Virus genome (UHGV): UHGV-0210052
From: a virus
Length of the DNA stretch: 38,615 bases
Strand: one strand, 5' to 3'
The notes beneath the pieces are model-generated. The model searched no databases. It had not been told where the DNA came from and saw nothing but the letters and a program-made list of their open reading frames with translations. Each line of letters starts with the position of its first letter. The stretch's first letter is position 1. Of the stretch, positions 31,905 through 35,382 are shown piece after piece. The translations under genes were made by a program, and so were the position numbers.

Positions 31905-32769
31905 GAACTTTCAGGTAGGTATTGTCGTTAAGCAGGAAATCAAATCCCTTTTTGTGCCAGACGGTTCCGCGTTGATGGTTTGGGCGTTCTTCGAACATCC
32001 ATCGGCAATTTTCGCCTACGTAGCTCAAATAATTTCTCCAGTCCTGCATCGTGAACCCATGCCCGTCAAGCTGGCGGGTTATCACTCCGGCTTTGCGCCA
32101 GAACGTTCGGATCTGGTTTTTACGCTTGTCATTCAGTGCGCGGATTCTTGGCGCTTCAGGAAGGATTTCGTGGTAAGCATCGACAACATCCTGACAGCTA
32201 ACGGAAGGTTTTTTCTTGTCAGACTTTTTGTCTGCTGTGGCACTCTCTAATACGTCAGTATTAGAGATATTATTTATATTATTGTTTATGGACAACCGTT
32301 GGACAACCGTTGGACAATCTCCGCTGAGAGCCGCGCCATTACTGGGGTTTGCGTTGGACAACCGTTGGACAACCGTTGGACAATTTTTTGCCTGAAAATC
32401 GTCATATTTAACGATTGTAAACAGGCTAAATTTCTTCCCCATCGAGCAAATATTAAGCATCCCTTTCGACTCAAAAGTCCGTAATAAGCTCCGAACTTTG
32501 TTGTCGGGGATGAATGTTTCTCTGACCAGCGACGGGCGTCCAGTTATCATCTGACCGCGATCAACAGTTATCGGACCGATATCCGTATTGACGACAGTAG
32601 ATTCGTGATTAGCCTTGAGGATTAAGTGAAGCCAAAGATGTACTGCCTGAGAGTCCTTATAGAGCCTGCTGTCCATAAACTGGCGGTGTATAGAGACATA
32701 CCCCATACTGGATGCCTCCTGATGTTGTACAGGGTTATGCCTGTAATCAGCTAACTTAACGACGCCCAT
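31879..32769 (-). CDS. replication initiation protein (lambda O-like role) containing origin iterons, 296 aa
   Basis: Position upstream of helicase; internal CPTVVQRLS peptide repeats encoded by DNA iterons. Confidence 0.75.
   Translation of the reverse strand: MGVVKLADYRHNPVQHQEASSMGYVSIHRQFMDSRLYKDSQAVHLWLHLILKANHESTVVNTDIGPITVDRGQMITGRPSLVRETFIPDNKVRSLLRTFESKGMLNICSMGKKFSLFTIVKYDDFQAKNCPTVVQRLSNANPSNGAALSGDCPTVVQRLSINNNINNISNTDVLESATADKKSDKKKPSVSCQDVVDAYHEILPEAPRIRALNDKRKNQIRTFWRKAGVITRQLDGHGFTMQDWRNYLSYVGENCRWMFEERPNHQRGTVWHKKGFDFLLNDNTYLKVREGEHDDR
32288..32386. repeat. origin iterons: two clusters of three 11 bp GGACAACCGTT repeats
   Basis: Tandem copies at 32290-32320 and 32356-32386, followed on the - strand by an AT-rich tract. 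Confidence 0.7.
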
Positions 32770-32995: not shown

Positions 32996-33230
32996 TCAGC
33001 ATTCTGGCTACTTTCTTAGCCAGTTCCGCCAACTCCTCGTCTTCAACACCCCACTCCAGTACAGCCAGAAGCATGGCCATCTTTGGGATAAAGCTGTCTT
33101 TCCATCGCGAAATTTGCGATTCATTGATCCCTAATGCGTCGGCCACCTTTCGCTGACCACGTACAGCAATTCGATTCAGGATGTTGCTTGTAATTGCATT
33201 CGCTTTCTTGCGAGTACTTGTAAGTTGCAT
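32952..33230 (-). CDS. cII: CII transcriptional activator, 92 aa
   Basis: SQISRWKDSFIPKMAMLLAVLEWGV matches lambda CII core as recalled. Confidence 0.85.
   Translation of the reverse strand: MQLTSTRKKANAITSNILNRIAVRGQRKVADALGINESQISRWKDSFIPKMAMLLAVLEWGVEDEELAELAKKVARMLTKEKAPKNGEFFEA
33184..33197 (+). promoter_or_regulatory. CII binding site TTGC-N6-TTGC (PRE -35 region)
   Basis: TTGCTTGTAATTGC on + strand inside the cII 5-prime coding region, oriented toward cI. Confidence 0.5.
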
Positions 33231-33288
33231 ATGTAAGTATTTCCTTAACTAATAAGAAGTTATGCGCATCAACTTATGCGCGTTGTAT

Positions 33289-33332
33289 TCCCGCATTTCG
33301 GCGGGAATGAGGACCATGACTGTTAAAGAGCG
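33289..33332 (-). promoter_or_regulatory. nutR (boxA CGCTCTTTAACA, boxB hairpin)
   Basis: On - strand boxA-like CGCTCTTTAACA after cro stop, then UCCCGCCGAAAUGCGGGA stem-loop; same elements recur at nutL. Confidence 0.6.
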
Positions 33333-33338
33333 GTGTTA

Positions 33339-33539
33339 CTATTTGTTTTTCTTGTTGCTTGGGAAAGGACGAACTTCCTCTCCAATCACACTGCCATCAG
33401 GCTTTACCGTAACCATGATGTTACGGCCTGCCAGAATGGCCTTGCTGATAGCGCACTGGATTACACCAAAGTCACTGGCTGCTTTAGCCTGTCCATGGAT
33501 TTTGGCGTAATCGGCAAGTGTCATTCGAATCATATGCAC
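33339..33539 (-). CDS. cro: Cro repressor, 66 aa
   Basis: [49 protein letters not shown] closely resembles lambda Cro as recalled; GTG start. Confidence 0.85.
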
Positions 33540-33562
33540 TCTCCGTTATTAACCATGAACAA

Positions 33563-33591
33563 AGAATACTACAGGTATTCAAAGCAATCAA
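33563..33591 (-). promoter_or_regulatory. PR promoter
   Basis: On - strand TTGATT, 17 bp spacer, TATTCT; overlaps OR1/OR2. Confidence 0.5.
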
Positions 33592-33628
33592 TACTCAGGG
33601 TATTTTTAGTTTAAGTACCTTAGCTATT
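33565..33628. promoter_or_regulatory. OR operator array (three 15 bp AATAC-N5-GTATT sites)
   Basis: AATACTACAGGTATT 33565-33579, AATACTCAGGGTATT 33590-33604, degenerate AGTACCTTAGCTATT 33614-33628. Confidence 0.6.
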
Positions 33629-33633
33629 AGAAT
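33605..33633 (+). promoter_or_regulatory. PRM promoter (leaderless cI transcript)
   Basis: TAGAAT at 33628-33633, 7 nt before cI ATG with no SD; weak -35 TTTAGT. Confidence 0.4.
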
Positions 33634-33639
33634 TAAGCT

Positions 33640-34356
33640 ATGGAAAATAAAAAATCACTGACGACAGAACAGCTCGAAGACGCTAAGCGGCTTAAGGCTT
33701 TGTATGAGTCAAAAAAGAAAGAATTGGGAATAACCCAATACTCAATCGCTGATGAACTGGGTATCACCCAAGGAGCGGTAGGGCATTATCTTAATGGCAG
33801 AAACGCGCTAAACGTTGAGGTTGCATCTGGTTTTGCACGATTGTTGCAAGTCTCAATTGCTGATTTTAGCCAGTCAATTGCTGCCAAGGTTGCAGAACAG
33901 GCAGAAAGCCTTAAGAGCGATGCCAACGTAAGGTATGCAGGGGAATACAGAGCAGGAAAGAGGTATCCGGTGTTAAGCAGTATCCAGGCTGGCTCGTGGT
34001 GTGAAGCATGCGAACCATACACCATTAAAGACATAGATGTTTGGCTTGAGTCTGACGCGCATATTCAAGGTAATGCGTTTTGGCTTAAAGTGGAAGGTGA
34101 TTCAATGACGGCACCGGTTGGGTTAAGCATTCCAGAGGGAACATTCGTTCTTTTCGATACCGGAAGGGAGGCGATCAACGGCAGCTTGGTCATAGCAAAA
34201 CTTTCTGACTCTAACGAAGCAACATTCAAGAAGCTGATAATCGACGGCGGAAATAAATACCTCAAGGGACTTAATCCTGCATGGCCTCTCGTGCCAATCA
34301 ATGGAAACTGCAAGATTATAGGCGTTGCAATTGAGACAAAACTAAGGCTGGTTTGA
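33640..34356 (+). CDS. cI: CI repressor (HTH N-terminus, LexA-like S24 C-terminus), 238 aa
   Basis: LTTEQLEDAKRLKALYESKKKELG, Ser/Lys dyad context (EGDSM ... FKKL); resembles lambda CI as recalled. Confidence 0.9.
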   Translation: MENKKSLTTEQLEDAKRLKALYESKKKELGITQYSIADELGITQGAVGHYLNGRNALNVEVASGFARLLQVSIADFSQSIAAKVAEQAESLKSDANVRYAGEYRAGKRYPVLSSIQAGSWCEACEPYTIKDIDVWLESDAHIQGNAFWLKVEGDSMTAPVGLSIPEGTFVLFDTGREAINGSLVIAKLSDSNEATFKKLIIDGGNKYLKGLNPAWPLVPINGNCKIIGVAIETKLRLV

Positions 34357-34373
34357 TCACGCAAGGGGCGATT

Positions 34374-34742
34374 ATGGTTGGAACCGCTATAGCAAGCTTT
34401 TTTGGGATGTTGGCAATCTCGACAATTTACGGCTTAGCGCATGCTTTTATTGCGAAATCTCTATCAGAAAAAATAAGCCAGGCTTGGGCGCATAGATCAG
34501 CTCGTTTCATGATTCTTGTGATCATAGCAATACAAGGGATATCTGCATTTATCCTCTATGGATCAAGCTTATACCTATTGTATCAAGGCGCGACATTTAC
34601 GCCTTACACCAGTGATTACGGAACTCTATACGATGGTAGTGAAGACATCACTGTGGCTTGGATCGTCTTTGGTTTATCTATGGCCGTGTCTGTTGTAGCA
34701 GACATCATTAAGGTAATTCTCGTCTTAACCTTCGCTGACTAA
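34374..34742 (+). CDS. small multi-TM membrane protein co-transcribed with cI, 122 aa
   Basis: ATG 34374 with AAGGGG SD; starts 18 nt after cI stop; three predicted TM helices; no motif recognised. Confidence 0.5.
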   Translation: MVGTAIASFFGMLAISTIYGLAHAFIAKSLSEKISQAWAHRSARFMILVIIAIQGISAFILYGSSLYLLYQGATFTPYTSDYGTLYDGSEDITVAWIVFGLSMAVSVVADIIKVILVLTFAD

Positions 34743-34828
34743 CCCATAATCCCGACAGCAATAGCTATCGGGATCCACTTCACATATCCCGCATAAAAAT
34801 CACTGAACAAGCAGACAGCGAAAAAATA

Positions 34829-34913
34829 AATATCCTTTGTATTCATTTGTTTATCATTATTTCATCAAAAATAAATACCTTGGGTATTTACACAATAAAA
34901 TACCTACAGTATT
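34829..34913. promoter_or_regulatory. OL operator array
   Basis: AATATCCTTTGTATT 34829-34843, AATACCTTGGGTATT 34874-34888, AATACCTACAGTATT 34899-34913; same consensus as OR. Confidence 0.55.
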
Positions 34914-34915
34914 CT
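34887..34915 (+). promoter_or_regulatory. PL promoter
   Basis: TTTACA, 17 bp spacer, TATTCT; overlaps OL sites; about 195 nt upstream of N. Confidence 0.5.
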
Positions 34916-34961
34916 TTAGCCATCAGCAGGACGCTGGAAGCCAAACGGAACAGATTGGCAG

Positions 34962-35002
34962 GCTCTTTAACATTGATGGGATTGTCCCGCCGAAATGCGG
35001 GA
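34962..35002 (+). promoter_or_regulatory. nutL (boxA GCTCTTTAACA, boxB hairpin)
   Basis: boxA 34962-34972; boxB TCCCGCCGAAATGCGGGA 34985-35002, identical to the nutR boxB. Confidence 0.6.
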
Positions 35003-35109
35003 ACCAAAGAGTAGTTGGCTTTGGGGTGGCGTGAAGTGCAGCTGCACGACGGCAACCGGAAGATAAGCACCCGGCGCGTCACCGCCAAAGTCAATCATCG
35101 GAGGTCAAC

Positions 35110-35382
35110 ATGACAGTAGTCATTACATATCTGGCTGACGATAACGCCAGAAATCGCCGCAGAGCACGCAGACAGGCTCAACGTGAACAGGCAATGCAAG
35201 AGCAGCGACTGGCACGAAAAATTGCGCTAAAGCTCTCTGGTTGCGTCAGAGCAGATAAAGCAGCATCACTCGGAAGCCTTCGCTGCAAGAAGGCAGATGA
35301 ATGCAGTGGAAGTATTTGCCTGCCAAACGTAGCCATTTACGCGGCAGGCTACCGGAAATCAAAACAACTGACAGCGAGGTAA
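35110..35382 (+). CDS. N: N antiterminator, P22 gp24 type, 90 aa
   Basis: Arg-rich N-terminus NARNRRRARRQAQREQ; C-terminus AIYAAGYRKSKQLTAR resembles P22 gene 24 protein as recalled; GGAGG SD. Confidence 0.8.
   Translation: MTVVITYLADDNARNRRRARRQAQREQAMQEQRLARKIALKLSGCVRADKAASLGSLRCKKADECSGSICLPNVAIYAAGYRKSKQLTAR

Follow-up and report, generated by a model that had tools for sequence, protein, structure and literature searches.

Among described phages, the closest counterpart of the immunity region analysed here is that of HK620 (GenBank AF335538 / NC_002730, deposited 2001; Clark, Inwood, Cloutier & Dhillon, J Mol Biol 2001), whose record annotates OR1, OR2, OR3, OL1, OL2, OL3, pR, pL, pRE, nutL, nutR and a terminator, and carries no PRM annotation. 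The paradigm for the arrangement is phage lambda, in which divergent cI and cro genes surround three 17-bp operators; upstream of its PL there is a site for IHF as well as a distant UP element, the latter also boosting PRM through a loop between OL and OR (Giladi 1998, as cited in PMC3708714). A third point of comparison is VT2-Sakai (Stx2-I), whose operators are bound by lambda CI in vitro and for which cross-immunity with lambda has been reported (PMC10742460).

The stretch of DNA analysed here, 38,615 nucleotides of the UHGV virus genome UHGV-0210052 (hereafter the window), very probably contains the immunity region of a P22-like temperate coliphage with an HK620 module, and this region appears to be a one-to-one counterpart of the lambda switch. 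Its left part, on the minus strand, holds a helicase gene of the DnaB type, a replication gene resembling O, then cII and cro; after a first control region come cI and hkaS on the plus strand, a second control region and N. The genes that bear most directly on the switch are:

33339 to 33533, minus strand: cro, 64 aa, lambda-type (Pfam Cro PF09048, E 3.6e-26, full length)
33640 to 34356, plus strand: cI repressor, 238 aa (Pfam HTH_3, E 8e-10, and Peptidase_S24, E 5e-24)
34374 to 34742, plus strand: hkaS, small hydrophobic protein with no function assigned (HK620 annotation; phrog_6534)
35110 to 35382, plus strand: N antiterminator (Pfam N_peptide, E 1.1e-15; N of HK620), first gene of the PL operon

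The products of cro and cI belong to the same families as their lambda counterparts. Cro, encoded at the same coordinates as HK620 cro, is 63% identical to lambda Cro and has the recognition helix Q-C-A-I-S-K (positions H1-H6), while CI is 43% identical to lambda CI, has the helix 3 sequence QGAVGHYLNGRN, and shares with lambda CI both its domains and its self-cleavage motifs. The QAG, GDSM and FKKL motifs of the two repressors align, so that both the site of cleavage (Ala-Gly) and the catalytic Ser and Lys are conserved (A111-G112, S149 and K192 in lambda CI). A difference from lambda is the presence of hkaS, co-oriented with cI, in the position occupied there by rexAB, a slot that ranges in length from 85 to 2,613 bp among relatives of this locus.

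The 38.6 kb of the window contain four exact copies of the palindromic pattern AATAC-N5-GTATT, where 0.02 would be expected, and none of 100 shuffled sequences contained at least four. These exact sites (33565-79, 33590-604, 34874-88 and 34899-913, by pattern scan) form two pairs, one in each of the control regions that flank cI, and the centres within each pair are 25 bp apart. When up to two mismatches are allowed the pattern is no longer enriched in the window (18 seen, 15 expected), so weaker sites need to be judged by their position. For example, matches with one or two mismatches elsewhere (such as 5949-65 and 22890-906) occur at chance frequency inside structural genes and were rejected as operators. 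A scoring matrix built from the four exact sites was used to rank the ~38,600 positions of the window. Taken with the comparisons described below, the data strongly support a predicted 17-bp operator of the form R-AATAC-Y-N3-R-GTATT-Y, which CI and Cro would both recognize.

The first control region comprises the 106 bp between cro and cI, and contains the following elements (no strand is assigned to operators):

33564 to 33580: OR1, GAATACTACAGGTATTC, exact consensus, annotated as OR1 in HK620; overlaps the PR -10
33589 to 33605: OR2, CAATACTCAGGGTATTT, exact consensus, annotated as OR2 in HK620; overlaps the PR -35
33613 to 33629: OR3, AAGTACCTTAGCTATTA, two mismatches, annotated as OR3 in HK620; two-base overlap with the PRM -10
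33563 to 33591, minus strand: PR, with -10 TATTCT at 33563-68, a 17-bp spacer and -35 TTGATT at 33586-91
33628 to 33640, plus strand: PRM -10 TAGAAT at 33628-33, then 6 nt and the cI ATG at 33640, in the lambda register (TAGATT, 6 nt, ATG)

This cI-OR-cro layout reproduces that of lambda nearly base for base. In both phages OR1 and OR2 lie over the -10 and -35 of PR, OR2 shares the bases TTG with the PR -35, and the last two bases of OR3 are the start of the PRM -10, with 6 nt between this hexamer and the ATG of cI; in addition, OR2 adjoins the predicted PRM -35. PR matches 8 of 12 consensus positions, which places it under the cut-off of 9 used in the promoter scan, and it falls within the HK620 pR feature, aligned with OR1 and OR2 just as PR is in lambda. 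The spacings of the operators depart slightly from lambda, since the centres of OR1 and OR2 are separated by 25 bp and those of OR2 and OR3 by 24 bp, each 1 bp longer than the 24 and 23 bp of lambda. The 15-mer at the heart of OR3 (33614-28, AGTACCTTAGCTATT) has two mismatches and ranks seventh in the window by matrix score; it is not significant as an isolated pattern match, and it sits where the lambda layout predicts.

The same geometry bears on the proposal that cI is translated from a leaderless mRNA. The TAGAAT -10 ends 6 nt before the cI ATG, as in lambda, so the predicted PRM start is likely to be the A of this ATG. A hexamer of the form TA[GCA][AT]AT is present 6-7 nt 5' of the cI ATG in all aligned relatives, and none of them has a Shine-Dalgarno sequence there, which adds support to a predicted leaderless cI transcript, as had been suggested for this locus.

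The second control region, between hkaS and N, contains the OL operators and PL, as well as two stretches that compete for the role of third operator:

34821 to 34831, plus strand: A-rich motif AAAAAATAAAT upstream of PL, invariant when the window is aligned with lambda and an Erwinia phage
34828 to 34844: probable OL3, AAATATCCTTTGTATTC, one mismatch, fifth in matrix rank; centre 45 bp from that of OL2
34851 to 34867: the stretch annotated as "OL3" in the GenBank record of HK620, TTATCATTATTTCATCA; not supported as an operator
34873 to 34889: OL2, AAATACCTTGGGTATTT, exact consensus with the top matrix score in the window; OL2 of HK620; overlaps the PL -35
34887 to 34915, plus strand: PL, with -35 TTTACA at 34887-92, a 17-bp spacer and -10 TATTCT at 34910-15; matches the HK620 pL feature
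34898 to 34914: OL1, AAATACCTACAGTATTC, exact consensus; OL1 of HK620; overlaps the PL -10

PL matches 9 of 12 consensus positions and is the sole promoter-like match of the scan within 33200-35150. OL2 and OL1, with centres 25 bp apart, lie over it as they do in lambda, and among HK620-type copies the variation in OL1 is confined to its central bases. The original prediction had placed six sites at a spacing of 23-25 bp, three in each control region, overlapping PR (TTGATT/TATTCT) and PL (TTTACA/TATTCT). Both promoters are located as described, with their -10 and -35 hexamers overlapped by operators, and the regular spacing holds for the four exact sites and for OR3; it breaks down at OL, where no third site was found 23-25 bp from OL2 and the only third candidate is 45 bp away, compared with 20 bp in lambda.

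The identity of this third OL site is the point at which the present analysis and the HK620 record part. The 15-mer at the centre of the candidate (34829-43, AATATCCTTTGTATT) has one mismatch and is not significant as an isolated match, so its assessment depends on comparison with other phages. The sequence of 34828-44 is the same in HK620, and across 64 HK620-type copies (22 distinct sequences) it contains no polymorphic position. To extend the comparison, 91 distinct OL regions of the AATAC operator family were examined for a site with no more than two mismatches, and a site at the -45 offset from OL2 was present in 58 of them. The regions divide as follows:

third site at -45 only: 53 of 91 OL regions, of which 21 fall outside the HK620 type (among them Serratia, Pantoea and Tatumella)
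third site at -21 only: 16 of 91 OL regions
third site at -30 only: 9 of 91 OL regions
third site at more than one offset: 5 of 91 OL regions, including Kluyvera and Phytobacter, which have the -45 site
no third site recognisable: 8 of 91 OL regions

Exactly one of the offsets -45, -30 and -21 is therefore used in 78 of the 91 regions, and this near-exclusive use looks like the trace of one functional third OL site that moved.

A different reading would keep the third operator at 34851-34867, where GenBank places it, and attribute the candidate at 34828-44 to a chance resemblance arising from the A-rich motif, or would grant OL two functional sites only. The annotated stretch is 22 bp from OL2, close to the ~20 bp that separates OL2 from OL3 in lambda, and 8 of the 91 related regions manage without a recognisable third site. 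In addition, the left half of 34828-44 overlaps AAAAAATAAAT, a motif that lambda retains as well and does not use as an operator, so part of the operator resemblance may be incidental. Yet the stretch at 34851-67, whose sequence was confirmed in HK620, matches 4 of 10 consensus positions, ranks 16,411 of ~38,600 by matrix score and has two polymorphic positions among the HK620-type copies that show none in 34828-44, and it is hard to reconcile with the 78 regions in which a site of this quality stands at exactly one of the three offsets. This reading is consequently regarded as unlikely, although it retains some weight, and 34828-34844, with its centre 45 bp from that of OL2, is the most likely third OL site, in preference to the GenBank OL3 stretch. 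AAAAAATAAAT, an A-rich element 5' of PL as in lambda, is probably the counterpart of the lambda distant UP element and IHF region, with a presumed function to match. On the HK620 branch, OL3 may be displaced to a position over this conserved UP-like element.

The HK620 record also places a cI-operon terminator in this area (34824-54). The terminator scan found no canonical plus-strand terminator there; folding gave a GC hairpin at 34749-74 that lacks a T-run, with weak AT pairing beyond it.

Apart from OL3, the correspondence with HK620 is close to complete. The region from cII to N (33200-35100, 1,901 bp) is 99.6% identical to HK620 at the nucleotide level, Cro is 100% identical and CI 99.6% identical, with one residue different, and neither the five strong operators nor the -45 site shows any difference in sequence. 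OR1-3, OL1-2, pR, pL, the nut sites, cII, N and hkaS are at the same positions in both phages, and five of the six operators annotated in HK620 coincide with consensus sites, OL3 being the exception. The resemblance ends with the module, since the rest of the window is another mosaic of P22-like modules, and no sequenced phage covers more than 57% of the first 25 kb. The module itself recurs at 98.6-99.8% identity in HK630, HK140, mEpX2, HF4s, HZ41, phi296, phi367, 611R6 and two Stx2c-converting phages, and the cro-OR-cI segment is found at ≥95% identity in 146 of 5,426 complete E. coli genomes.

These data settle the suggestion, made in the original prediction, that the operators might define a distinct, uncatalogued immunity. 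That view could draw on the differences of the operator and recognition helices from those of lambda, and on the absence of any biochemical characterisation of the AATAC specificity from the accessible literature; the full texts accessible yielded neither footprinting or gel-shift results nor immunity tests for CI or Cro of the HK620 type, and they mention HK620 only incidentally. It fails because comparison with catalogued immunity types identifies a known one, HK620, in which operators and promoters have been annotated since 2001, and because the module is common among the phages and E. coli genomes listed above; a new lambdoid specificity is accordingly given almost no credence. By its sequence, the immunity type is that of HK620 and already known. 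The narrower point, that the specificity is unlike that of lambda, survives, as the recognition helices differ and so do positions 3 and 4 of the half-site.

The nature of that difference can be examined residue by residue. The half-site reads x1-A2-A3-T4-A5-C6 here and T1-A2-T3-C4-A5-C6 in lambda, so that base pairs 3 and 4 are changed. Helix 3 of CI is QGAVGHY here and QSGVGAL in lambda: residue 45, Ser in lambda, is Gly here, and there are further changes at 46, 49 and 50. In lambda CI, it is Ser45 that contacts base pair 4. For Cro the recognition helices are QCAISK here and QSAINK in lambda, which amounts to a change of Ser to Cys at H2 and of Asn to Ser at H5, with the residues for base pairs 2, 5 and 6 kept. 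Rules derived for Cro proteins (Hall, Lefevre & Cordes 2005; Hall et al. 2011), in the form quoted in PMC6649833, pair Gln at H1 with A2, Ala at H3 with A5 and Lys at H6 with C6, and as quoted there all of them hold for the helix Q-C-A-I-S-K and the half-site x-A-A-T-A-C. The same source describes, for lambda Cro, contacts of Ser H2 to base pairs 4 and 5 and of the recognition-helix Asn to base pair 3 (PMC6649833). The changes at base pairs 3 and 4 thus match the positions at which the helix residues predicted to read them have changed.

VT2-Sakai provides an additional comparison. The DNA-binding domain of its CI is as close to that of the window as lambda's is (54% identity), and its Cro helix, QSAISK, differs only at H2 from the QTAISK found in relatives of the window. 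Its operators differ from those described here in being lambda-like (TATCAC/TAACAC type), with no AATAC sites. The combination of QSAISK with lambda-like operators points to H2 as the main specificity switch in Cro.

Whether AATAC operators and this helix type go together was addressed in both directions. In a scan of viral contigs for pairs of AATAC-N5-GTATT sites separated by 8-12 bp, 37 distinct diverged CI/Cro pairs were recovered, with CI DNA-binding domains 64-92% and Cro proteins 46-87% identical to those of the window. All 37 keep the CI helix 3 QG[AG]VGHY[LM]NGR[NI] and the Cro helix Q[CT]AISK, and in all 37 the centres of OR1 and OR2 lie 66-69 bp and 42-44 bp, respectively, before the cI ATG. 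OR1 and OR2 were in part selected by the scan itself; OR3, which played no part in the selection, is found 19-20 bp before the cI ATG in 32 of the 37, where it reads AATA[GAC]-N5-GTATT. Across these loci conservation is confined to the half-sites, with free variation in the five bases at the centre.

In the reverse direction, relatives of CI were collected from species-representative genomes by means of peptide motifs outside the recognition helix. Among CIs of the QG type, 22 of 23 have at least one AATAC site (no more than one mismatch) 5' of cI and 19 of 23 have at least two, whereas lambda-like CIs of the QS type have none in 38 cases, about 21 of which are lambda itself; as the loci are related by descent, these counts do not represent independent events. 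The Erwinia phage vB_EhrS_49, found by protein search, whose CI DNA-binding domain is 68% identical to that of the window, has all six sites. A protein-based scan of viral contigs was set aside as an independent test, its matches being almost all identical copies. Together, these searches place the AATAC operator type in Escherichia, Serratia, Yersinia, Pectobacterium, Pantoea, Tatumella, Morganella, Providencia, Xenorhabdus and Erwinia.

About 26 further viral loci with the paired-operator pattern encode no CI or Cro relative; some of these are truncated loci, and others probably reflect chance in AT-rich genomes.

That the palindromes might instead be bound by a different protein of phage or host, or simply arise from the way AT-rich promoters are built, is suggested by their base composition, their overlap with promoters and the sequence-based nature of the assignment to CI and Cro, but it is very improbable given half-sites that stay fixed while centres and flanks drift in diverged relatives, AATAC sites that track the CI/Cro helix type, and a number, spacing and promoter overlap that reproduce the lambda operators position for position. 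The sites are thus predicted, with strong comparative support, to be operators for CI and Cro, as had been supposed at the outset.

The domains and motifs of CI and Cro, together with an OR that aligns with that of lambda position for position, lead us to infer a lambda-type mechanism, in which CI would bind cooperatively, loop OL to OR and activate PRM, and transcription of cI would start as in lambda. In such a switch, dimers of CI and of Cro would bind the 17-bp operators; occupation of OR1 and OR2 would block PR, and that of OL1 and OL2 would block PL. CI at OR2, beside the weak PRM -35, would presumably activate PRM, from which cI would be transcribed as a leaderless mRNA beginning at the A of its ATG, as in lambda. 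Binding of Cro or of excess CI to OR3, which overlaps the PRM -10, would shut off cI, and RecA-stimulated self-cleavage of CI at the conserved Ala-Gly would lead to prophage induction.

The main finding itself changes little, as it describes a textbook-style switch whose exact sequence has been publicly annotated since 2001. One practical consequence is that the OL3 annotation in the HK620 reference record is likely wrong and may have been copied to related records. Another is that the data set linking the helix types of CI and Cro to operator types should be useful for deriving rules of protein-DNA recognition.

It is also possible, though on balance doubtful, that the AATAC type constitutes a large specificity class spanning several genera and that, in its HK620 branch, a displaced OL3 alters the self-repression of cI. 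If the displacement is real, it could change how cI limits its own expression. As diverged CI and Cro proteins keep the same helix and half-site, prophages that look heteroimmune could cross-repress or engage in cross-talk. Such cross-repression, if true, would parallel the relationship between lambda and VT2-Sakai, and a single operator specificity common to diverged prophages of many Enterobacterales would bear on cross-immunity, including for the Stx2c-converting phages that carry the HK620 module.

Among AATAC-type immunity regions (those whose CI and Cro operators read AATAC-N5-GTATT), the interval from the cI stop codon to the operator OL2 ranges from 85 to 2,613 bp when the window is compared with immunity loci L004-L122. 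This stretch is a variable cargo slot, located at the position that rexAB occupies in lambda, and in the window it contains the following features.

34357-34872, the slot between cI and OL2, with a counterpart in L004-L122
34374-34742, hkaS, which lies in the slot and encodes a hydrophobic protein of 122 aa (phrog_6534, a family without known function)
34749-34774, a GC-rich hairpin, CCCGACAGCAATAGCTATCGGG, directly past the hkaS stop codon and lacking a T-run

Overall, folding of the region is better than that of its shuffled sequences (z = -3.9). The terminator annotated in HK620 (34824-54) is AT-only, and a terminator scan of the window gave no match at this position.

Upstream of PL, the A-rich motif AAAAAATAAAT (34821-34831) is invariant in a three-way comparison of the window phage, lambda and an Erwinia phage, even though the operators differ among these phages. 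This motif is probably the counterpart of the lambda region that contains an IHF site and a distant UP element; the UP element also stimulates PRM via the OL-OR loop (Giladi 1998, as cited in PMC3708714).

Elsewhere in the window, the O-like replication gene contains two clusters, each of three 11-bp direct repeats (TGGACAACCGT; 32278-32395), which are origin iterons and agree with the rep_origin feature of HK620. The repeat TTGC-N6-TTGC is the classic CII-binding element of PRE-type promoters, and one copy (TTGCTTGTAATTGC), in the same sense as cI, is present within the 5'-terminal part of cII (33185-33198), ~10-20 bp away from the cII-binding site annotated in HK620 (window 33207-33230).

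The genome contig scan also found CI and Cro recognition helices identical to those of lambda on contigs of ~21 species-representative assemblies from unrelated taxa (loci L231-L248, L258, L260, L263 and L267), including Shewanella, Kitasatospora, Paenibacillus, Capnocytophaga, Bradyrhizobium, Limosilactobacillus and Helicobacter. These contigs are mostly tiny, with roughly 1x coverage, and look like lambda DNA contamination of the assemblies.

By reading the cro-cI intergenic regions of five other loci (L225, L215, L216, L218 and L230), it was found that AGTAC-type half-sites accompany CI QSAVGHY and Cro QIAISK, and an xCTAC-type OR2 accompanies Cro QMAISK. In the same intergenic region of a Yersinia prophage, whose CI helix is QSAVNQF, there are hybrid sites (TATTAC/AATAC...GTGAT) that are intermediate between lambda-type and AATAC-type operators. 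The five loci are natural intermediates of operator specificity.
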